From NCBI RefSeq assembly GCF_000025945.1, contig NC_006138.1, positions 3,210,001 to 3,242,000 on the forward strand: DNA of 32,000 nucleotides. The letters run 5' to 3'. A program made the translations under genes and the position numbers. The notes under the pieces were generated by a model. The model was not told the DNA's origin and searched no databases. It saw only the letters and a list, made by a program, of their open reading frames with translations. Source of the DNA: Desulfotalea psychrophila LSv54. GTDB taxonomy: Bacteria > Desulfobacterota > Desulfobulbia > Desulfobulbales > Desulfocapsaceae. Positions 5,025 to 19,297 of this stretch are shown in pieces (position 1 is the first letter of the stretch; each line of letters begins with the position of its first letter).

Positions 5025-6995
5025 ATGTGCAGGGCTACAAAAAGACGATTTATTGTTGGCTCAATACTATTTGCCTGTTTGTCCAATTCGCCAGCCTGGG
5101 CAGAAAATGAGATCTCGACCCCATTATTGCCAACAGCCAACAATTTTCGAGATATCGCCGGAATATCAGAGACACATGGCGGAAACGGATTTGTAAATGA
5201 TACCAGATATAAAGGCCTTATGCGAACAGGGGTGTTTTATCGTTCCTCAAAGCTCCAGGAGCTCAACTCGAAAGATTTCAACACAATCTCTGCTCTTGGA
5301 ATCTCGCTGGTTATCGATCTACGGAGTCCTTATGAGATTTCGCTGGCTCCTGACCTACCTTTACCTGGAGCCAGCTTAGTAAATCATAATATATACGCCA
5401 TTAATCCTCCAGTCTCTCCGCCAATTCCTGGTGACTCCCCTCCGCTAATAGACTCCACAACAGAGATGACAAAATATTTCCACGATTTTTATCGGAAATT
5501 CATCACTGATTATAAGCAGCGTGCTGAATTTAAATTAGTTCTCCTGGATCTGATCAACACTCCAGGGGCCGGGCTATACCATTGTACCGGTGGCAAGGAT
5601 CGAACGGGTTGGGTGAGTGTCATCCTGCAAAGTATTGCCGGCGTCTCCGATTCGACTATTATGAAGGATTATCTGGCTACCAATCTATATAGTGAAAAAT
5701 ATATAAATGAATTCCTGGTTAAGATCACGGATCCTAATAAAAAGATTGCCTACAGGATACTTGCTGGAGTGCAAGAAGATTTTTTACAGGCGGCACTTGA
5801 TCAGGTGGTCACTTCCTATGGGTCGATGCAGGCGTATTTGACTCAGGGCTTGGGATTAAGCCAGGCTGATATTTATCTCCTCCGGGCCAAAATGGTTTAC
5901 TACCAGACCCTACCCGGCCAAGCTCAGTTTTCCGGTAATGCTGCCCGAGGCGCAACTTTTCTCAACGCTTTACAGAACTCACCTCTTTCAGGGCAATACT
6001 CAAACTACAACTATTATCTACAGGCAGCTATTGATGCTGGCACCTTGGCTGGCGTAGAAACCAGAGTAGGTGGTCAGGTACATGCTGATGCAGCTGCATA
6101 TCTCTTGCGCCAACCACAGTTAATCGATAATGCCTTAACAACCCTTGCCAGTGGCCAAAATCTCAAATTTGGTGAAGGCAAGGCATGGCTATCAGGTGTT
6201 ACAGAAAACCAGGAGGTGTCAAGCCGTTCTGGCATAGCTAGCAGTGATAGCCGCAGCTCTGGTTTGATTGTTGGCGGGACACATCGTTTTAATGAAAATG
6301 CGAGCGCCTATGTAGGTGCAAGCTATATTTCAAACAAGGTCGAAAGTGCCAGCGCCGACGCTGATATCGACAACTATCTTGTCGTCTTTGGTGGACGTTA
6401 TGCCTTAGCAAAACTTGAAACTGGTCCCTATATGGGGGTCAGGTTCAGTGCCGGCGCCCTTGATTATAAGAGCACCCGGCCCCTGGATTATGGCCTTGGC
6501 ACGGCAACTGGTAAAACCGATGGCAAAACTTATAGTGGCCGTATTGACCTTGGTAATATTTTTGACAGAGGTACCTTTACGATCACACCGCAGCTTGGCC
6601 TGCTCGTCGCCCATATCAACCTTGACAGATTCGATGAACAGGGCAGTGAACTGGGCCTTCACGTCAATGGTATTTCCGAAACAATACCCAGTTTATTAGC
6701 TGAACTGCGCGTCGATCTCAATGGACGACAATTTGGTAATTGGCTGTTCCAGCCTTCCGCAGTGGTAGGCTATGAACGGGCATTAGACACCTCGAATGTA
6801 ACTAGTACGGGTTCGCTTTACGGATATCCCATAAGCCAGGAGTCAGCCTATGACAGTCGTGATCTCGCCAAGCTTGGTCTTGGGGTAAGCGCACGGAATG
6901 GGAACTTCAGTCTACAAGTTGGGGCTAATGTCATGGCCGGAGAAAATATCAACAGCATCTTAGGTGCTAACATCAACTTTTCATATACCTTTTAG
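5025..6995 (+). CDS. Secreted protein-tyrosine/dual-specificity phosphatase (CX5R, Y_phosphatase3/IphP-like) fused to a C-terminal autotransporter beta-barrel, paralog 1
   Basis: GGAGG RBS about 8 nt upstream and a signal peptide (..SNSPAWA/EN). The P-loop HCTGGKDRTG is encoded at about 5580-5609. The C-terminal ~270 aa show alternating beta-strand patterning and end in ..ANINFSYTF, an OMP-type terminal aromatic. The GKAWLSG...GLIVGG...GGRY... pattern is typical of type Va translocators. Confidence 0.85.
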   Translation: MCRATKRRFIVGSILFACLSNSPAWAENEISTPLLPTANNFRDIAGISETHGGNGFVNDTRYKGLMRTGVFYRSSKLQELNSKDFNTISALGISLVIDLRSPYEISLAPDLPLPGASLVNHNIYAINPPVSPPIPGDSPPLIDSTTEMTKYFHDFYRKFITDYKQRAEFKLVLLDLINTPGAGLYHCTGGKDRTGWVSVILQSIAGVSDSTIMKDYLATNLYSEKYINEFLVKITDPNKKIAYRILAGVQEDFLQAALDQVVTSYGSMQAYLTQGLGLSQADIYLLRAKMVYYQTLPGQAQFSGNAARGATFLNALQNSPLSGQYSNYNYYLQAAIDAGTLAGVETRVGGQVHADAAAYLLRQPQLIDNALTTLASGQNLKFGEGKAWLSGVTENQEVSSRSGIASSDSRSSGLIVGGTHRFNENASAYVGASYISNKVESASADADIDNYLVVFGGRYALAKLETGPYMGVRFSAGALDYKSTRPLDYGLGTATGKTDGKTYSGRIDLGNIFDRGTFTITPQLGLLVAHINLDRFDEQGSELGLHVNGISETIPSLLAELRVDLNGRQFGNWLFQPSAVVGYERALDTSNVTSTGSLYGYPISQESAYDSRDLAKLGLGVSARNGNFSLQVGANVMAGENINSILGANINFSYTF

Positions 6996-7235: not shown

Positions 7236-9176
7236 ATGTGCAGGGCTACAAAAAGACGATTTATTATTGGCTCAATACTATTTGCCTGTTTGTCCAATTC
7301 GCCAGCCTGGGCAGAAAATGAGATCTCGACGCCATACTTAACCAGTGCCAGTAACTTTCGAGACATTGCAGGAATATCAAAAAACTATGGTGGAACCGGT
7401 TTTGTAAATGATACCAGCCATGAAGGCATCATGAGAACAGGAGTATTTTATCGTTCTCCAAAGCTCTTTAACCTTAGCTCGGTCGATTTCAATACAATCT
7501 CTGGCCTTGGGCTTTCGCTCATTATCGATTTAAGAACTCCTAAAGAAATTCAAGACGCTCCAGACATGTCTTTTGGTATTAATGAAGTATATCATAATAT
7601 CTTTGGTACCCAAGATACTCCCCATCTGTCCTACATTACCCCAGAAGATGTTAGGGTGAGCTTCCACAACGCTTATCGGGAATACATAACCGAGGAAGGC
7701 CAGAGAAAGGTATTGAAAAATATTTTTCTCGACTTGGCCAAAACTCCTAAGGCAGCCCTATACCATTGCACTGGTGGCAAGGATAGAACAGGTTGGGTGA
7801 GTGCCGTCCTGCAAAGTATTGCCGGCGTCTCAGATGCGACTATCATGAATGATTATCTCGCGACCAATCTATATATGGAGACAGCTGTTAATAAATTTCT
7901 AAAAGATTATCCTGAATCAATGTGGCCTATTCTTAAATTGCGTTTGGGAGTAGAAGCGAGCTATCTGCAGGCGGCACTTGAGCAGGTGGTCACTTCCTAT
8001 GGGTCAATGCAAGCGTATTTGCTCCAGGGCTTGGATTTAACACCGGCTGATATCTATGTCCTCCGGGCCAAAATGGTTTACTACCAGAGCCTACCCGGCC
8101 AAGCTCAGTTTTCCGGTAATGCTGCTAGAGGCGCAACTTTTCTCAACAGTTTACAGAACTCACCTCTTTCAGGGCAATACTCAAACTACAACTATTATCT
8201 ACAGGCAGCTATTGATGCTGGCACCTTGAGTGGCGTAGAAACCAGAGTAGGTGGTCAGGTGCATGCCGATGCAGCTGCATATCTCTTGCGCCAACCACAA
8301 TTAATCGATAATGCCTTAACAACCCTTGCCAGTGGTCAAAATCTCAAATTCGGTGAAGGCAAGGCATGGCTATCAGGTCTTACAGAAAACCAGGAGGTGT
8401 CAAGCCGTTCTGGGATAGCAAGCAGTGATAGTCGCAGCTCTGGTTTGATTGTTGGCGGGACACATCGTTTTAATGAGAATGCGAGCGCCTATGCAGGTGC
8501 AAGCTATATTTCAAACAAGGTCGAAAGTGCCAGCGCCGACGCTGACATCGACAACTATCTTGTCGTCTTTGGTGGACGTTATGCCCTGTCAAAACTTGAA
8601 ACGGGACCCTATATGGGGGTCAGGTTCAGTGCCGGCGCCCTTGATTATAAGAGTACCCGGCCCCTGGATTATGGCCTTGGCACGGCAACGGGTAAAACCG
8701 ATGGCAAAACTTATAGTGGCCGTATTGACCTTGGTAATATTTTTGAGAGAGGTACCTTTACGATCACACCACAGCTTGGCCTGCTCGTCGCCCATATCGA
8801 CCTTGACAGATTCGATGAGCAGGGGAGCGAACTGGCTCTTAAGGTCAATGGTATTTCCGAAACAATACCCAGTTTATTAGCCGAACTGCGCGTCGATCTC
8901 AATGGACGACAACTTGGCAATTGGGTCTTCCAGCCTTCCGCAGTGATAGGCTATGAACGGGCATTAGATACCTCGAATGTAACGAGTACGGGTTCACTTT
9001 ACGGAATATCAGTAAGCCAGGAGTCAGCCTATGACAGTCGTGATCTCGCCAAGCTTGGTCTTGGAATAAGCGCACGAAATGGGAACTTCAGCCTACAAGT
9101 TGGTGCTAATCTAATGGCTGGAGAAAATATCAACAGCATCTTAGGTGCTAATATCAACTTTCTATATACCTTTTAG
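7236..9176 (+). CDS. Secreted CX5R phosphatase-autotransporter fusion, paralog 2
   Basis: Same architecture as 5025-6995: identical signal-peptide sequence apart from one residue, HCTGGKDRTG at about 7764-7793, and an autotransporter-like C-terminus ending ..ANINFLYTF. Confidence 0.85.
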   Translation: MCRATKRRFIIGSILFACLSNSPAWAENEISTPYLTSASNFRDIAGISKNYGGTGFVNDTSHEGIMRTGVFYRSPKLFNLSSVDFNTISGLGLSLIIDLRTPKEIQDAPDMSFGINEVYHNIFGTQDTPHLSYITPEDVRVSFHNAYREYITEEGQRKVLKNIFLDLAKTPKAALYHCTGGKDRTGWVSAVLQSIAGVSDATIMNDYLATNLYMETAVNKFLKDYPESMWPILKLRLGVEASYLQAALEQVVTSYGSMQAYLLQGLDLTPADIYVLRAKMVYYQSLPGQAQFSGNAARGATFLNSLQNSPLSGQYSNYNYYLQAAIDAGTLSGVETRVGGQVHADAAAYLLRQPQLIDNALTTLASGQNLKFGEGKAWLSGLTENQEVSSRSGIASSDSRSSGLIVGGTHRFNENASAYAGASYISNKVESASADADIDNYLVVFGGRYALSKLETGPYMGVRFSAGALDYKSTRPLDYGLGTATGKTDGKTYSGRIDLGNIFERGTFTITPQLGLLVAHIDLDRFDEQGSELALKVNGISETIPSLLAELRVDLNGRQLGNWVFQPSAVIGYERALDTSNVTSTGSLYGISVSQESAYDSRDLAKLGLGISARNGNFSLQVGANLMAGENINSILGANINFLYTF

Positions 9177-12611: not shown

Positions 12612-12668
12612 AAACTTCAGAACCCTTATGTTTTCCGCTTATAAATATATTTTTCGAGTCAGGTGCTT

Positions 12669-15600
12669 ATGAATTTTTCTATTAAGAAGAGCAAGGAAAG
12701 GCTACTTACGGCATGGGGAAAACGGGGTGTCCGTGTAGGCGTTTCTATTGCCACTGTTTTTTTATTGTTTGTACTCCTATTGCCCTTTGCAGTGAAACAG
12801 GGCGTACAGTGGTGGCTGGTGAAAAATGGTGCAGCGGAGGCTGTCATCTCGTCACTTTCGCTTAATCTCTTCACCGGCACCTTACATGTTAAAGGCGTGG
12901 ACGTACAGGGTGCACAGAAGATGCTTTTTGCAACCGATGGTTCGGGGCTTAAATTTGACATTTTAGGCCTGTTTGGTAAAGAGATACATATCGAAAGGAC
13001 CTATTATGACCATGTCACCATTCAGGTAAAACAGGAGGAAGATGGGCAGTGGAAAATTGCCTCATACACAACCCCCGAACAAAAAGAGAATAAACCAATC
13101 GAGGAGAGTAAGGGGTCGGATTGGACCATCCTCGTCGATGATGTGCATATTACCAACTCCTCAGTTGAATTTATAAGCCCCACCTTTTCAACAGTAGTCA
13201 CCATTGATGATGCGCAACTGACAAATTTTTCAACAGCAGCGGCTGCTGCTCCCGCTGATTTTCATTTCAAGGGTAAAATTGATAAGACACCGCTTGTTCT
13301 CGAAGCTGGAAAGTTACGGGTTCTACCTGATCTGATGGTGGCGGGGCAGATTAATTTGCTGGATTTTGATACGGCAAGCTTATCACCCCTATTAGTAGGA
13401 CAGTTAGAAAAGATTGCAGGGCTGTTCTCCATGGCTGGTCAGTTTAAATTTGAGATGAAGAGTGATACGACAGCTTTTCGATACGATGGTGATGTTAATC
13501 TAGCCAAAACTCATCTGAAAATGAAGGATATAAACTACCTGTCTGATCATACCCATTGGTCAGGAACTGTGGATGCGAAAAACGAATGGAGCCAGTTTAT
13601 TATAGATGGCGCACTGCTTCTTGATGGCATTGCCCTGGATCTCACCCAACAATCACTTTCTGTGGATAATAAGCATCTCTCTTTTAAGGGTAAAACAAAA
13701 GTCCATCTCGTTGAGAAAGGTGTCGTTCTTACCAGCGATTCAACCCTGATCTCAGATGGTATAATAGTAAAACAGACAGGGACAATTTATGGACATAAAC
13801 ATTTAAAGTGGCAGGGTACACTGGGAAATAAGCAGGATGCGCAACATTATCTTATTGATGGCGATCTCACCCTTGGTGGAATGAATATTAAAATGGCTGA
13901 TTCTGGCTTGGCACTTACCAATCAAGATGTTCAGTTTGCTGGTTCCACCGATATTGATTTGAGTTCGGCCTTGCAGATTACTCATAGGGGAAGTTTTGTC
14001 AGTAAAGGGTTTAAGGTTCTTGTAGGTGAAATGGATTATGGCCATGACCAGCTCACCTGGAAGGGGAACATTAGCCATAAAAATGGCATCCTTACGACCA
14101 GTTCTAGCAAAGGCACACTTCAACTCGAAAATATTTCATACTCACAGGCAGGAGCTTCCCCGCTCAAGGTGCATCTCAAGAACACCAGTTGGGCTGGGAC
14201 CCTCTCCTATTCTCCAGTGCAAGATGATATCTTTGCCTCCCTGGCACTTGCCGGCAAGGTAAACGCCAAGGGTTTTGCATATGCTCTCCCTGGCACTATG
14301 CCTCTGGATATAGGCCTTGCAAGTATTGCCTGCAATGATTTATCGGTTGGACGTGATGGTGTGCATCTTGGCACCTCACTCATAGACGGCCTTAGCATCT
14401 ACTCTCCTATTGCCAAAAGGATGGCACTGGAACTGCAAAAGATTACACTCACTGAAAGTACTGTCACACCAAAATATATGGTCTCCTCAAGGGCGGGAAG
14501 CTTTGCCGGGTTCCAGCTGTTTCCTGTTGACAAAAAAGATCAGCATAATGGAGAGTTGGAAGCCTTAACCTTTACTGGTTTCTCCTGGTCTCCTCAATCC
14601 GGAGTTGAGCTAAAAGGGTTGGTTGCTCAGGCATTGTCTCTTGAACTGGAGAGGGATACAAAGGGAGATCTTAACTTAGCCAAGTTGATAGCAAGTCTGA
14701 AAGATATTGAGAGTAAAGTAGATGGAGGTCAGACTGGCGAAGAAGTTCATAGGGAAGTCCCTGCCCAAGGAATCCAGAAATCTACTCCAGGCGTTAAGGT
14801 CGATAAAATTGAGTTAGTGGGCGACAACAAGATCCTATTCACCGACCATACCTTACTTGTTCCCTATCGTAGTGAAACAGTCTTTAAGAAGTTCCTTATT
14901 GAAAATATCGATACCTTGAATGCAAAGCAGGATACCTTGATAACGGTGGAGGCACTCCTCGAAAAACGTGCCCCGTTCACCCTTTCAGGTAAAATACGAC
15001 CATTTACAAAAAAGCCTGAAGAGAGCGTATCTGCCCAGTTGCAATTCAAGTTACGAAATTATCCTTTACGTAACCTCTCTCCCTATCTGGTGCAGGCGGT
15101 AGGTACGGGACTGGAGAGTGGACAGTTGAAGTTGCAAGGTACCTTTAAATTGGAAAAGGGTGAGGTTGATATTGAAAATAAACTGCTCTTTAAAAAGTTG
15201 GTTACTAAAGCCGTGGCACCAGAACTGGCAAAGCAACTCGACAATAAACTTCCCGTACCCTTAAACACAGCTCTTGGTTTGTTGAGAGATAGTGATGACA
15301 ATATCGCGCTCAGTATTCCGATCAGTGGACCCATTGACAAACTGGATTTTAACCTCACTAACATCTTTATAACAGCCCTCAGTAAGGCTGTTGTGCCTGC
15401 CGCCAGTTCTTATCTGATGTATGCCCTTGGGCCCTACGGCGCTCTTGCCTATGTGGGGATGAAGATTGGGCAGAATATCTTAGAAGTACATTTGCCACCG
15501 GTAAACTTTGTTAAGGGTGAAGAGAAGCTGAGCGTGGATCAGAAAGATTATCTGCAGAGAATCGGTAAGATCGTTAAAGAGGGCAAGGCAAATTCTGACC

Positions 15601-15839
15601 TTCAGGTTGTTCCCGTGACTAATGTTGCCCTTGAGCTTGGCCGAGAAGGTCAATTGGTGGCCGATTTATCTCAAGAGCAGCGTCAAAAAATGCTTAAACT
15701 AGGCCAGCTCAGAGCACAGATTATCCAAAAGTATCTGGTGGAGAAACAAGGCGTTGCTGCAGGAAAGGTGCTACTTTCCGTCACCAGGTTAGAAGATGGT
15801 TCGGCTTCTTCTCGGGTTGAACTACAACCAGAAGAGTAG
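12669..15839 (+). CDS. Large envelope protein, DUF748 / AsmA-like family (N-terminal membrane anchor, long beta-rich body)
   Basis: One N-terminal TM segment (VGVSIATVFLLFVLLLPFAV). It is followed by the pattern I associate with DUF748/AsmA-like proteins (..WLVKNGAAEAVISSLSLNLFTGTLHVKGVDV..). The body is long, repetitive and low in hydrophobicity. ATG at 12669 (GTG at 12663 also possible). Confidence 0.68.
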   Translation: MNFSIKKSKERLLTAWGKRGVRVGVSIATVFLLFVLLLPFAVKQGVQWWLVKNGAAEAVISSLSLNLFTGTLHVKGVDVQGAQKMLFATDGSGLKFDILGLFGKEIHIERTYYDHVTIQVKQEEDGQWKIASYTTPEQKENKPIEESKGSDWTILVDDVHITNSSVEFISPTFSTVVTIDDAQLTNFSTAAAAAPADFHFKGKIDKTPLVLEAGKLRVLPDLMVAGQINLLDFDTASLSPLLVGQLEKIAGLFSMAGQFKFEMKSDTTAFRYDGDVNLAKTHLKMKDINYLSDHTHWSGTVDAKNEWSQFIIDGALLLDGIALDLTQQSLSVDNKHLSFKGKTKVHLVEKGVVLTSDSTLISDGIIVKQTGTIYGHKHLKWQGTLGNKQDAQHYLIDGDLTLGGMNIKMADSGLALTNQDVQFAGSTDIDLSSALQITHRGSFVSKGFKVLVGEMDYGHDQLTWKGNISHKNGILTTSSSKGTLQLENISYSQAGASPLKVHLKNTSWAGTLSYSPVQDDIFASLALAGKVNAKGFAYALPGTMPLDIGLASIACNDLSVGRDGVHLGTSLIDGLSIYSPIAKRMALELQKITLTESTVTPKYMVSSRAGSFAGFQLFPVDKKDQHNGELEALTFTGFSWSPQSGVELKGLVAQALSLELERDTKGDLNLAKLIASLKDIESKVDGGQTGEEVHREVPAQGIQKSTPGVKVDKIELVGDNKILFTDHTLLVPYRSETVFKKFLIENIDTLNAKQDTLITVEALLEKRAPFTLSGKIRPFTKKPEESVSAQLQFKLRNYPLRNLSPYLVQAVGTGLESGQLKLQGTFKLEKGEVDIENKLLFKKLVTKAVAPELAKQLDNKLPVPLNTALGLLRDSDDNIALSIPISGPIDKLDFNLTNIFITALSKAVVPAASSYLMYALGPYGALAYVGMKIGQNILEVHLPPVNFVKGEEKLSVDQKDYLQRIGKIVKEGKANSDLQVVPVTNVALELGREGQLVADLSQEQRQKMLKLGQLRAQIIQKYLVEKQGVAAGKVLLSVTRLEDGSASSRVELQPEE

Positions 15840-15851
15840 CGTGTCGGAGAA

Positions 15852-17252
15852 CTATTTTTGTAACTTTTCAAGCATGGTAAGAAGCAGTTCATTAAAGGCC
15901 TGTTGCGCTGCTTCACCTTGATCTATCTTCTGCTTTGTTGTGCAGTTAAAGAATTTCTTACAGAGTGTAAGCTCTGCCCTTGACCACTCTTGGGTGAAAT
16001 TATGCTTTGCCAGTTCTGGTAAATTGCTTTCAGATGACAGAGAGTCCCGTCTGCCATGGGCCCAGTTGACAATCTGTTGGTAAAAAAGAAAAGAACGATT
16101 GAGCAGAATAAAGAGAAGCCTAATGTCTTTAGCAGGACCTATTGAGATCGTTTCATTGGCTATCCGTATACCCTTTATGGTGGAACTTTTTTCTATTGCC
16201 TTTTGTCCGGTGAAGAGAGCAGCCACGGCCCCACCTGCACTAGCCGCTGCGGTAAAAATCCCAAAGGTGAGTCCGGCAAAGGCAAGGTCAATTCCAGCGC
16301 CTAAACCTGCACCGCTGAGACCACCCAGGAGCATACATTGCTTTTTGCTTAGCCCTAATAACTGCCAATTTTTCGCAGTGAAAAGATTATCGCTGAGTAA
16401 AGGGTTAGGCGGGAGAGTGTAGTTGTAAATATTATGCTTATAAAGATCACGCAATCTGCTCTGCGCAGTTTTCTCCATCTGCTCTAACTGCTTTTTATAT
16501 CGATCAAAGAGATGGCGACGCGCAACATCTTCTCCTTCGTTTCCTCCGATCTTACCTTCTAAAGAGAAGCTCAGAGATTCTCCAAGCATCGTACTGATAA
16601 GTTCAGCTGCGCGCTGGGTGCGATCCTGCCAGTTTTGCTTAAAGGCAAGGAGTGCTCGCTGTAGCGGTTCCTGCCAGTCCTGTTCAATGGACTTAAGTGC
16701 TTCAAAGAGATGAATCCGTTCTCTGTATCCGGCATGGTGTGCATTGAACACCCTGTATGAGTTGAAAGTTTTTCTGAACTCATCTTTCCATATTTCCAGG
16801 TACTGACGGTTATCTTTGCAGTTGATTACCGCCATTCGTGGTCTCCCTGTTAAGCGTAAAATTTCAATTTCGCTCAGATCAACATTTTTTATTGGTCTTG
16901 ATCCATCCACAACATAGATTATACCAGCACCCCGTAAAAGTGGCTTGAGCAACTCAATGTCATGTTTCAGTTCGGGAATATCCTGTAATGATCTTACCAG
17001 AGTTTTGAGGTTTGCGGCCGGCGAGCCAGTACACTGTTTGAGCTCATAAAGGATTCTATTAGGGTTTTGAAATCCCGGTGTATCAGTGAAACGAAGAATA
17101 TCCTGATCGTCAATATTGATGACAAATGATTGGCAGAGAGTCGTCTCTCCGGGGCTGCTACTAATGCGTACAGAATCATCTTCTGCCAGAGTTGATAGAA
17201 CCGATGACTTCCCCTCGTTGGGATGTCCCATGATGGCAAATTCAGGAATCAT
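15852..17252 (-). CDS. P-loop GTPase with C-terminal DUF3482-like domain containing a Gly/Ala-rich hydrophobic segment
   Basis: G1 GHPNEGKS (aa 9-16), G3 DTPG (aa 57-60) and a G4-like NCKD (aa 144-147). The hydrophobic stretch LLGGLSGAGLGAGIDLAFAGLTFGIFTAAASAGGAVAALFTG spans about aa 308-349. The start ATG overlaps the upstream stop (ATGA at 17249-17252). The DUF3482 name is from memory. Confidence 0.8.
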   Translation of the reverse strand: MIPEFAIMGHPNEGKSSVLSTLAEDDSVRISSSPGETTLCQSFVINIDDQDILRFTDTPGFQNPNRILYELKQCTGSPAANLKTLVRSLQDIPELKHDIELLKPLLRGAGIIYVVDGSRPIKNVDLSEIEILRLTGRPRMAVINCKDNRQYLEIWKDEFRKTFNSYRVFNAHHAGYRERIHLFEALKSIEQDWQEPLQRALLAFKQNWQDRTQRAAELISTMLGESLSFSLEGKIGGNEGEDVARRHLFDRYKKQLEQMEKTAQSRLRDLYKHNIYNYTLPPNPLLSDNLFTAKNWQLLGLSKKQCMLLGGLSGAGLGAGIDLAFAGLTFGIFTAAASAGGAVAALFTGQKAIEKSSTIKGIRIANETISIGPAKDIRLLFILLNRSFLFYQQIVNWAHGRRDSLSSESNLPELAKHNFTQEWSRAELTLCKKFFNCTTKQKIDQGEAAQQAFNELLLTMLEKLQK

Positions 17253-18796
17253 TGAATTTCACCTAATGTAATTGGGAAAAGTTGGATAAAACTATCACCA
17301 AGTCCGGCGATCTTTTGTTGCCAGAGCAGGGTCTCCGTCTCTTTTGGACTGACCAGTGAACCATCTGCCAAACTATTAACAAGTAGTACCTCAACTGTGG
17401 TTTGGGTTTTTTCTCTTATTGTTTGCACATAGGAGAGGAACTCGGTGAGGGGAACCATATTAGCCTCCATTACAATGAAGATAGGACAGTGCTGCTTGCT
17501 ATTCTGCAGAGCAAGTTGGTCGACAATCTCTTGGTCAGAAGCGTAGTCGGCCATAAAGGTGATCAACCGTTCGGCTCTATATCCATGCTGGAGGAGCAAT
17601 GTCTTGAGTATATTATCATGGCGGGCATTTCTGATGTCTGCTGCAATCAGTACTGTAACTGTTGCCTGGTGGCCAGTTTGCGATTGCTCGTCGCCTGTAT
17701 GAGAGAACCGACGATCCTTATCTGTTGCATCGGCACCGATGGTTTGTCCCGGCTCTTTCTCACTTTTTTGCTCATAGATGGGGGTGCGCATCCGGTGAAA
17801 GAGTTTTTGGTATTCTGCTCTTCGCGTGGTGGATGACTGAAGACTCTTTCTCTCTTGTAAGAGGGCAATTAAAAAGAGAAGTATCCGGGGCAGAAGACCA
17901 TAGGTCAAGAGACAGAGGATAAGAAACGGCCACCAGGATGAGAGGTTTTGATTTGCTAAGTGATAGATACCATCTTTTAGAATAATCCGACTACCGGCAA
18001 TTTGTTCAAGGGTTGGGTTGGCGTGGGCGAGAAGGCTGCTCCAGTTCCAGGGGGCAGAGACAATTTGCACCATGGTCTGGATATATTCAGTGCTCAGTCT
18101 CAAAGTAGATTGCCAGCCAAAAGCGATATCTGAGGTGATAATTTTATACAGAGCGCCAAAAAGAAGGCCGATGTTGAGGCTTATGCTAGCTGACTGATGT
18201 ATACGATTAAAGAGAGAGGAGAGGTCAACCGAATAGCCTTTATTTTGTTTGAGAATCCCCAGTGCATGTTCATAGTTTAATCGTTTCTCTGCCGGAAATT
18301 TTGCGATTAATGGCCCTGCCAAAAACGAGGTGAAGAGGGCAAGGCAATATCGTATCAGTGGCGGTGACAGTGACTTCTGCCCTTGGCCAAGCGAGCGAAT
18401 GAGCCTGACGAGAAGGGCAAGCGTTATGGTGCATAGCTGGCTGCCGATGAAGATAATTATAAATGAAAATATATTGATAGGTGTAGTGCCGGAATAATAT
18501 AAAAAAGTAGTAGTGGCAGAAATACCAACGAAGAAACTGATGACCAAGAGGATGAGATGGATGCGACTGAGAGCCTTTGAGACAATGGTACCGATGCTTT
18601 CTGTATCGATACATTGCTTGCCTCGTTGAGCGGCTAACCATATTGAGAGCAGTCTTGCTGAATCTTCTTGTCCATCTTTTGGCACATATTCCAGGAAAAG
18701 AGCTCGATCCCGCTTGTGGAGTTCCTGCCAGTTTTTTTGCCGGTCAAGATGGAAAAAAAAAGCAGCATCTATTATGTCTCGGTATTTGGGATTCAT
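17249..18796 (-). CDS. Polytopic membrane protein, probable DUF2868 family, partner of the downstream GTPase
   Basis: 515-aa ORF with a soluble N-terminal ~70 aa and several hydrophobic helices in the middle (LILLVISFFVGISATTTFLY, IFSFIIIFIGSQLCTITLALLV, WWPFLILCLLTYGLLPRILLFLIALL). The C-terminal ~160 aa are soluble. The family name is recalled, not verified. Confidence 0.7.
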   Translation of the reverse strand: MNPKYRDIIDAAFFFHLDRQKNWQELHKRDRALFLEYVPKDGQEDSARLLSIWLAAQRGKQCIDTESIGTIVSKALSRIHLILLVISFFVGISATTTFLYYSGTTPINIFSFIIIFIGSQLCTITLALLVRLIRSLGQGQKSLSPPLIRYCLALFTSFLAGPLIAKFPAEKRLNYEHALGILKQNKGYSVDLSSLFNRIHQSASISLNIGLLFGALYKIITSDIAFGWQSTLRLSTEYIQTMVQIVSAPWNWSSLLAHANPTLEQIAGSRIILKDGIYHLANQNLSSWWPFLILCLLTYGLLPRILLFLIALLQERKSLQSSTTRRAEYQKLFHRMRTPIYEQKSEKEPGQTIGADATDKDRRFSHTGDEQSQTGHQATVTVLIAADIRNARHDNILKTLLLQHGYRAERLITFMADYASDQEIVDQLALQNSKQHCPIFIVMEANMVPLTEFLSYVQTIREKTQTTVEVLLVNSLADGSLVSPKETETLLWQQKIAGLGDSFIQLFPITLGEIQ

Positions 18797-19003: not shown

Positions 19004-19297
19004 CCCTCTTGCAGAAGCTCGCAAAGCCCTAAATCAATAAAATGACCCTTGCAGGGATCTGCAAAGACCATTTTATTGCTCCGACAGCCCTTGCATGAAC
19101 CCGCAAAGACCATTTTATTGCTCCGATAGCCCTTGCACGAACCTGCAAAGACTGTTTTCTTGAGTAGACAACCCTTGCACGAACCTGCAAAGACTGTTTT
19201 CTTGAGTAGACAGCTCTTGCACGAACCCGCAAAGGCTACTTTAGTGCTGAGATAGCGTTTGCAGAGACCTGTAAGGATAATTTTATATCTAGGTCAG
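19004..19297 (+). repeat. Non-coding tandem array 2: about 7 units with an exact 42-bp period
   Basis: Units phased at 19004, 19046, 19088, 19130, 19172, 19214 and 19256, with a degenerate unit from 19298. Units at 19130 and 19172 differ only at the last base (CCCTTGCACGAACCTGCAAAGACTGTTTTCTTGAGTAGACAR). Each unit carries TTGCA-N6-TGCAA or TTGC-N8-GCAA. Confidence 0.9.

Follow-up and report, generated by a model that had tools for sequence, protein, structure and literature searches.

Several groups of GTPases are associated with membranes. In mitofusin/Fzo1 and atlastin/Sey1, a G domain and a helical region are followed by a hairpin of two closely spaced hydrophobic helices, the flanks of which lie on the same side of the membrane, and by a C-terminal helical tail. 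The bacterial dynamin-like proteins, i.e., BDLP1 from Nostoc, LeoA and LeoBC from E. coli, IniA from Mycobacterium and DynA from B. subtilis, are 600-750 aa long and consist of a G domain of ~300 aa, a helical bundle, a glycine-rich hydrophobic membrane element and return helices. They are encoded in small operons with an obligate partner, which is a second dynamin (PMC4159319, PMC6715688). The paddle of BDLP is a helix hairpin between the trunk helices; LeoB has a middle domain, a membrane-binding domain and then a GED, and the paddle of LeoA is glycine-rich (PMC6715688, PMC4159319). Besides these, FeoB has a G domain fused to a large permease, and the eukaryotic immunity families GIMAP/AIG1 and IRG (Irga6) have a small G domain, a helical extension and an association with membranes. 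The locus described here lies in a window of 32,000 nt from Desulfotalea psychrophila LSv54 (NC_006138.1, positions 3,210,001 to 3,242,000) and consists of two genes, one for a membrane protein of the DUF2868 family and one for a GTPase with a DUF3482 domain. We tentatively prefer, at a little less than even confidence, the reading that the products of this two-gene operon, a compact GTPase of dynamin/mitofusin-like build and a partner dedicated to it, form a complex in the inner membrane.

Both genes are on the minus strand, and all coordinates given are positions within the window. The gene for the DUF2868 inner-membrane protein (17249..18796; 515 aa) and that for the GTPase (15852..17252; 466 aa) both start with ATG in the list of open reading frames (ORFs). 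The membrane protein matches DUF2868 (PF11067) in Pfam with 254.3 bits against a gathering cut-off of 26.8, over positions 7-315 of the 315 of the model. The GTPase has an MMR_HSR1 domain (PF01926; 46 bits vs a cut-off of 21.9, aa 5-144) N-terminal to DUF3482 (PF11981; 262.2 bits vs a cut-off of 29.2, aa 161-458), so that the two families named in an initial annotation of this DNA are the right ones. In NCBIfam, there are only far sub-threshold matches of the Era/Der/EngB type to the G domain (38 vs 124 bits and lower) and none to the membrane protein; an Rfam scan of the window gave no match. At the junction, gaaattcaATGAttcct, the ATG of the GTPase gene and the TGA of the upstream DUF2868 gene have the 4 nt ATGA in common (17249..17252). 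A Shine–Dalgarno-like AGGTGA (17259..17264) is located 6 nt before the GTPase ATG, within the DUF2868 coding sequence. Reading of the sequence returns both ORFs and their overlap exactly as first annotated; the stoichiometric co-production deduced from them does not follow from a 4-nt overlap. Of 40 scored junctions in related loci, 26 overlap by 1-14 nt, seven have gaps of 1-14 nt and another seven have gaps of 33-102 nt. These statistics, with 14 junctions lacking an overlap, make translational coupling plausible and common, but not universal.

Wherever this could be assessed in related loci, the two families are inherited together and lie side by side, as their treatment as a pair in the initial annotation supposes. 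A DUF2868 gene is directly upstream of the GTPase gene and on the same strand in 46 out of 46 loci with enough upstream sequence, which span four named lineages (Desulfobulbales, Desulfobacterales, Chitinispirillia and Thiodictyon). In species-level genomes this is the case for 35 of 36 loci, the contig of the 36th ending 180 nt upstream of the GTPase gene. The same order is found in the closest relative (L109), in a locus from Chitinispirillia (L105), in Desulfonema ishimotonii (L106), in two distant contigs (L107 and L110) and in four metagenome loci (L037-L040), three of which encode GTPases that are only 30-40% identical. These four were the only family members found in a metagenome scan with G1-type patterns, which mostly gave generic Era/Der-like GTPases. 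On an annotated 485-kb replicon of the gammaproteobacterium Thiodictyon syntrophicum (L108), the order is again the same and one base is common to both genes. In P. aeruginosa, both proteins carry consecutive IMG gene numbers in a published gene list (PMC12864544). The proteobacterial context is limited to this replicon and these numbers because the homologue search with a diverse profile gave mostly Desulfobacterota.

The relatives of the window pair are Desulfobulbales, the best non-self GTPase being 65% identical, and the GTPase family comprises ~320 clusters at 50% identity with E <= 1e-30 to the protein of the window. Identity to this protein is ~45-58% in Desulfobulbales, ~43-48% in Desulfobacterales, ~42% in Chitinispirillia and ~36-37% in Gammaproteobacteria. 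In matched loci, the identities of DUF2868 and GTPase are 48% vs 65%, 26% vs 42% and 30% vs 37%, which indicates that the DUF2868 partner evolves faster than the GTPase. When all flanking ORFs were clustered, no real third gene recurred in more than 10 of the 45 loci, and the pair stands as an autonomous module of two genes. Altogether, this module is conserved across Desulfobacterota, Fibrobacterota (Chitinispirillia) and Gammaproteobacteria, to which the published list adds P. aeruginosa.

The G domain of the GTPase (aa 1-175; 16728..17252) was delimited by means of an AlphaFold2 model, the family alignment and PDB sequence and fold matches to Der, EngB and Era. The model has a mean predicted local distance difference test (pLDDT) of 75.9 and a predicted TM-score (pTM) of 0.75, and the ~175 aa of its G domain include a helical insert of ~45 aa after switch II. 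All three motifs of the initial annotation are present, namely G1 GHPNEGKS, G3 DTPG (here extended to DTPGF) and an atypical G4 NCKD (N144-C-K-D), and T37 can be assigned as G2. The alignment comprises 135 GTPase representatives at 30-45% identity, taken from the ~320 clusters, in which G1 (GxxNxGKS), T37 and DTPGF are essentially invariant. F61 is found at the position of the catalytic glutamine in 133 of the 135 representatives. As this glutamine is replaced by a hydrophobic residue, the protein is assigned to the HAS-type GTPases, i.e., the TrmE-Era-EngA-YihA-septin-like superfamily. GTPases that are activated by K+ are marked by two asparagines, one in G1 and one five residues after the G1 lysine, which stabilises the K-loop (PMC3466195). 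The first of these, the P-loop asparagine N12 (GxxNxGK[ST]), is present in 131 of 135 representatives. At the second position (K+5, position 20) there is alanine in 72 and serine in 62 of them, and never asparagine. The canonical G4 motif [NT]KxD is likewise missing: N144 is invariant, position 146 is lysine in 54 and isoleucine in 46 of the 135, and position 147 is aspartate in 19. Because NKxD is not conserved, guanine specificity is assumed. The label GTPase chosen initially is therefore itself a presumption. Within the TRAFAC GTPases, we place the DUF3482 protein as a compact member of the Era/EngA/FeoB type.

The G domain is followed by a helical region, referred to here as the stalk (aa 176-305; 16338..16727), which contains long helices at 194-227 and 241-270 in the AlphaFold2 model. 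After the stalk, the model has short helices up to residue 308 and leaves residues 312-365 unmodelled. This part overlaps a glycine-zipper hydrophobic segment (aa 306-349; 16206..16337), defined by alignment, hydropathy and conservation periodicity. The Gly/Ala-rich hydrophobic stretch reported initially is real; Gly and Ala each account for 11 of 45 residues in it. Residues G314, A315, G318, D322, G327, G337 and G341 are conserved in at least 85% of the 135 representatives with a spacing of roughly four residues, D322 being near-invariant. The conservation has α-helical periodicity (period 3.8-4.0, permutation p = 0.003), basic residues flank the segment at 303-304 and 350-351, and stretches devoid of K, R and E have a median length of 46 residues. 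AlphaFold leaves the segment out of the fold core (pLDDT 24-39) while both flanks are confident, so that it is not modelled as buried core, which would have spoken against the paddle proposed at first. The C-terminal part consists of return helices (aa 366-466; 15855..16157; confident helices at 378-398, 425-439 and 446-465) with conserved R386, H399 and R402. When the segment was isolated and compared with the glycine-zipper families in Pfam, no match was found. Its features are the signature of a putative glycine-zipper helical hairpin, the length of which would suffice for entering the membrane and coming back, and such a hairpin fits because both flanking parts are cytoplasmic.

The order of secondary structure elements in the GTPase model fits a dynamin trunk with C-terminal helices that return towards the G domain, and the 44-aa glycine-zipper segment stands in the position of the dynamin paddle. 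LeoA (E = 3.4e-7) and LeoBC (E = 5.5e-4), both weak, are the only matches of the window GTPase in PADLOC; within 70 diverse members, 66 match LeoA and 57 match LeoBC. Eleven members were inspected individually. In four of them, i.e., the window protein, P0323, P0307 and P0334, the LeoBC/LeoB matches are collinear on the stalk and the hydrophobic region (protein ~173-395, profile ~328-521) and span the paddle-like segment. Full-length alignments in Foldseek were obtained with IniA (E = 5e-5), Irga6, GIMAP2 and GM4951, and sub-threshold Dynamin_N matches in 41 of 70 members belong to the same dynamin-like signal. Taken together, the GTPase appears to be built like a miniature BDLP or mitofusin, which is not to claim that it is one: the dynamin-like similarity is weak but consistent, and membership of the dynamin family is not established. 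Its elements follow each other in the order known from the bacterial dynamin-like proteins, and it too is encoded in a small operon with an obligate partner. In comparison with these proteins, the DUF3482 GTPase is shorter, with ~466 aa and a G domain of ~175 aa, its G4 is not T/NKxD, and its partner is a four-helix membrane protein with a flavodoxin-like domain instead of a second dynamin. With mitofusin/Fzo1 and atlastin/Sey1 the likeness is one of architecture only, as a sequence relationship is undetectable, and the DUF3482 GTPase is much smaller and relies on a separate membrane partner. The resemblance to GIMAP/AIG1 and IRG is seen in the Foldseek matches (Irga6, GIMAP2 and GM4951, with TM-scores of ~0.25) and in sub-threshold AIG1 matches in 3 of 70 members, but these families have neither an internal glycine zipper nor a DUF2868 partner.

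That LeoA and LeoBC are the only PADLOC matches could also mean that the pair serves in defence against phages and is related to Eleos (LeoABC), a system based on dynamins. A 'LeoA-like DLP' gene of Pseudomonas pseudoalcaligenes GAM2 (KX863700), a possible member of the present family, has a 1-bp overlap with an upstream hypothetical gene and adjoins a phage integrase, and its disruption lowers survival in fungal exudate (PMC6344628). If it is a member, this may be the sole recorded phenotype of the family. In the case of the window pair, however, a single GTPase gene matches both Leo models and no second dynamin-like gene is present; the partner has no PADLOC match, PADLOC being without a DUF2868 model. 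Moreover, GTPase identity declines with taxonomic distance, a pattern that, judged from these identities, is consistent with mostly vertical inheritance. Most annotated neighbours are of the housekeeping type, i.e., guanylate kinase, SpoU methylase, suf genes, PPDK and puf genes. The exception is the Desulfonema locus (L106), where a Y1 transposase and a CHAT/NB-ARC-type protein are encoded within 4 kb. We therefore give a role in defence hardly any weight.

The DUF2868 protein was analysed using 60 homologues, both for the AlphaFold2 model (pLDDT 83.7, pTM 0.78) and for family-averaged hydropathy and positive-inside counts. The initial annotation called it polytopic; there are only four family-conserved transmembrane (TM) helices, at aa 79-100, 108-129, 201-221 and 288-313. 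A further candidate helix at aa 149-165 was rejected, since it contains ~3.4 basic residues on family average and is part of a basic cytoplasmic loop, looking hydrophobic in the window protein only. The positive-inside analysis puts the N-terminal helical domain in the cytoplasm together with the entire C-terminal part, and both termini are predicted to be inside. The first two helices form the TM1-TM2 hairpin (aa 79-129; 18410..18562) with an uncharged periplasmic turn of 7 aa. TM4 (aa 201-221; 18134..18196), assigned from hydropathy and a comparison of distant partners, is followed by the invariant D223 at the periplasmic boundary. Between TM4 and TM5 there is a Trp-rich periplasmic loop (aa 222-287; 17936..18133) with the conserved motifs AFGWQST, PW.W and GSRIILKDG. 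This loop is low in basic residues (K+R 0.05 per residue) and has a net negative charge, holds most of the invariant columns of the alignment (A2), and is kept in the most distant partners. TM5 (aa 288-313; 17858..17935) carries the invariant motif WWPF...YGLLPR, which includes the intramembrane arginine R304. It is in the 66-aa loop and at the start of TM5 that most invariant residues are found, namely D223, F226, W228, W250, P261, W288, Y299 and R304. The most distant partners retain every one of these, and R304 is unchanged in all 11 distant partners examined.

Beyond TM5, a strongly basic juxtamembrane segment and a disordered linker lead to a cytoplasmic C-terminal domain that had been overlooked in the initial annotation. 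It is modelled by AlphaFold2 (pLDDT ~87-94) as a flavodoxin-like (βα)5 domain (aa ~376-507; 17276..17671) with a conserved E-x-W-x-P-P motif. This predicted domain has no P-loop, and its fold matches are only generic flavodoxin-like ones (E >= 0.03). For DUF2868 as a whole, no PDB entry was matched by sequence or profile, and none by fold under E = 0.03; its sub-domains match nothing in Pfam but DUF2868 itself.

A GTPase that is tied to a polytopic membrane protein brings FeoB to mind, with which the DUF3482 protein shares the HAS-type G domain and the asparagine of the GxxNxGKS P-loop, a residue used by FeoB and MnmE, and to which 58 of 70 members give a sub-threshold FeoB_N match. DUF2868, possibly together with the hairpin of the GTPase, might then be a channel or transporter that is gated or powered by the GTPase, the zipper and the buried Asp and Arg residues lining a pore instead of remodelling lipid. 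Conserved charged residues do occur within hydrophobic segments of both proteins. Glycine zippers are frequent in homo-oligomeric channels. We consider this explanation unlikely, though the least unlikely of the alternatives. FeoB_N stays under its cut-off (19.1 vs 27 bits) and FeoB_C and Gate are found in neither protein. DUF2868 is a separate protein with four TM helices only, for which no transporter family was recovered by Pfam, NCBIfam, PDB profile or Foldseek. In addition, clustering of the flanking ORFs gave no recurrent substrate-related genes nearby, and the long helical stalk, the hairpin and the return helices have no counterpart in FeoB.

In the dynamin/mitofusin-like reading, DUF2868 would serve as a four-TM scaffold that combines the Trp-rich periplasmic loop, R304 in TM5 and the cytoplasmic flavodoxin-like domain. 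The glycine-zipper hairpin of ~44 residues, or 'paddle', of the GTPase would dip into or cross the cytoplasmic membrane and would dock on the DUF2868 helices beside TM4 and TM5, possibly via an intramembrane ion pair between D322 and R304. Nucleotide binding and hydrolysis, probably activated by dimerisation of the G domains, would shift the stalk relative to the membrane-embedded hairpin. As an outcome, the inner membrane would be deformed or stabilised, or a conformational change would be relayed to the periplasmic loop. This scheme builds on what was observed, i.e., the linkage of the genes, the domain anatomy, the conserved residues and the weak similarity to dynamins, and goes beyond it as regards the physical complex, the insertion of the hairpin, the ion pair and any remodelling activity. 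A bolder version, which we think improbable, is that of a hitherto unrecognised class of minimal membrane-embedded dynamin/mitofusin-like machine that works as a hetero-complex only, its hairpin being locked into the four-TM partner by the Asp-Arg pair and its nucleotide state being relayed to the Trp-rich loop for envelope remodelling, repair or signalling.

A number of observations weigh against a dynamin/mitofusin-like complex. Firstly, the similarity to dynamins is limited. LeoA matches are confined to G1-G3, and several of the LeoBC stretches are below threshold on their own. When the helical part and the Gly/Ala part were scanned as separate pieces, the PADLOC match to LeoBC was lost; neither piece matching alone, the match is not purely compositional, yet not strong. 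TM-scores in Foldseek are low (0.22-0.27; just 0.22 for IniA). Pfam Dynamin_N has no match in the window protein and is sub-threshold in 41 of 70 relatives, P0323 reaching 24.7 bits vs a cut-off of 27 and the best E-value among the 70 being 2.3e-6. Nor is the enlarged dynamin G domain of ~300 aa seen, the one here being ~175 aa. Secondly, the D322-R304 pairing has the conservation of both residues as its sole basis. Thirdly, a 984-aa fusion of DUF2868, MMR_HSR1 and DUF3482 (P0356), encoded on a 10,282-bp metagenome contig from ENA, was rejected as Rosetta-stone evidence. Its residues 386-490 are 31% Arg and displace most of the (βα)5 domain after the first ~40 residues, after which the GTPase frame follows. 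The fusion is therefore attributed to a frameshift in high-GC DNA by which two overlapping genes are read as one, either as an assembly frameshift or as a pseudogene, and is not a natural one. Fourthly, no experiment is known for any member. When full texts were searched for the DUF names, the Pfam accessions and related terms, only incidental listings were retrieved and, as supposed at first, neither a published function nor a functional study of the pair.

The remaining points of this kind concern the membrane insertion of the hairpin and the relationship of the G domain. Hydropathy of the Gly/Ala segment is borderline, with a Kyte-Doolittle maximum of ~1.6 over 19 residues, and in published DeepTMHMM and CCTOP runs the orthologue from P. 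aeruginosa is predicted to be free of TM helices (PMC12864544). The initial analogy with the paddles of membrane-remodelling GTPases is thus weakened by published predictors, while the LeoA/LeoBC profiles and the IniA and Irga6 folds lend it weak independent support. Together with the near-invariant Asp in the middle of the segment, a pLDDT so low that it is compatible with disorder, and two cytoplasmic DUF2868 domains as possible docking sites, these predictions would also suit a segment that stays outside the membrane. It would then be a flexible glycine-rich linker, or a protein-protein interface that becomes folded only on contact with the cytoplasmic domains of its partner, which the GTPase would regulate as a peripheral switch. 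This is distinctly unlikely in our view, as a K/R/E-free stretch with a median of 46 residues, basic flanks, helical periodicity and a pattern of the GxxxG type characterises membrane helices much more than soluble linkers, and as the partner has a matching invariant intramembrane Arg.

The closest sequence and fold matches of the G domain are not dynamins but Der/EngA, EngB, Era and MnmE, and source annotations label relatives as 'GTPase Era' or 'EngB'. Era, Der and EngB are ribosome-associated. In an alternative reading, the protein might be a membrane-tethered assembly GTPase of this type, the pair coupling ribosomes, or another ribonucleoprotein or assembly process, to the membrane, with a superficial likeness to dynamins. 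With this group the protein also shares the replacement of the catalytic Gln, here by F61, and the first of the two asparagines that mark activation by K+, that of the P-loop. Nonetheless, we regard such a function as very unlikely. The similarity is limited to the G domain, in which the K+5 Asn is replaced by Ala or Ser and NKxD is not conserved; the scores of the NCBIfam equivalogs are far under their cut-offs; there is no KH or other RNA-binding domain. Instead, helices and hydrophobic sequence make up the DUF3482 region, and a membrane protein serves as obligate partner.

The existence of the pair is not new, as both families are catalogued and an NCBI product name, 'GTPase/DUF3482 domain-containing protein', is in use. 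What is added here is the predicted topology of the DUF2868 family, its putative (βα)5 domain, the glycine-zipper/Asp and TM5-Arg signatures, the non-canonical G4, the partial K+ signature, a quantified gene linkage, and a weak but consistent link to bacterial dynamin-like proteins. If the dynamin/mitofusin-like reading were true, the DUF3482 protein would be the smallest such membrane GTPase known, and the first to have an integral-membrane protein other than a GTPase as its dedicated partner. It would then be a tractable system for studying how nucleotide hydrolysis is coupled to bacterial membrane mechanics. If it were a gated channel or a regulatory switch instead, two widespread DUFs would still be retired. 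Residues D322 and R304, the E-x-W-x-P-P motif, the non-canonical G4 and the incomplete K+ signature are points for testing. Overall, the pair is well defined, testable and widely distributed, with a mechanism that we infer, and it will not come as a surprise to the specialist.

The immediate neighbour of the pair is a gene on the plus strand (12663..15839) for a protein of 1058 aa that matches Pfam DUF748 with 159 bits. In the initial annotation this neighbour was described as a giant AsmA-like protein, from which an envelope role for the pair was proposed. The gene is convergent with the GTPase gene, the stops being at 15839 and 15852 with a gap of 12 bp, and is therefore not co-transcribed with the pair. 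The DUF748 gene recurs in only 5 of 47 loci, all of them close relatives; synteny is restricted to L109, which is the closest relative (59% identity), and to three loci from Desulforhopalus. An envelope role by way of DUF748 was for these reasons rejected as a general feature.

When flanking ORFs were clustered, apparent third genes at 26, 22 and 12 loci were rejected as well, as they are shadow ORFs antisense to the pair. In the window, such long ORFs are found at 16099-16422 and 17402-17836, both on the plus strand. Their equivalents in 12-26 related loci recur because the sense genes are conserved; they are not genes themselves. Three loci have a split gene, with two ORFs in place of the DUF2868 gene in L010 (6313-7970) and in Desulfonema L106 (6365-7999), and in place of the GTPase gene in L032 (7973-9417). 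This reflects either assembly indels in metagenome-assembled genomes or occasional pseudogenisation.

Two related loci have a distinctive form or surrounding. On the replicon pTs485 of Thiodictyon syntrophicum (L108, 4878-6989), the DUF2868 protein has 703 aa compared to ~520 elsewhere, and the pair adjoins the light-harvesting puf genes. This DUF2868 protein (AUB85354.1) is included in a table of differentially expressed proteins of this organism (PMC6413534). In L110, genes for an Arf-family small GTPase and a Roadblock/LC7 protein (MglA/MglB-like; 1-621) are located ~4 kb upstream of the pair, and suf genes directly downstream; the MglA/MglB-like neighbourhood is probably coincidental.

Upstream of the operon in the window, an intergenic region of 672 bp separates the start of the DUF2868 gene from a divergent GNAT gene and contains a 42-bp tandem repeat of 4.8 copies (19046-19248; 83% matches, TRF score 217). 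Each repeat unit has the short palindrome CTTGCA-N6-TGCAAG, a motif with five occurrences here and none in the rest of the window, where chance would give 0. The repeat may be a regulatory or REP-like element. At a larger distance, the window contains two tandem paralogues (5025-6995 and 7236-9176), each with a tyrosine-phosphatase-like Y_phosphatase3 passenger fused to an autotransporter β-domain. They are predicted to be surface-displayed or secreted phosphatases, which is unusual for a Desulfobulbales genome.

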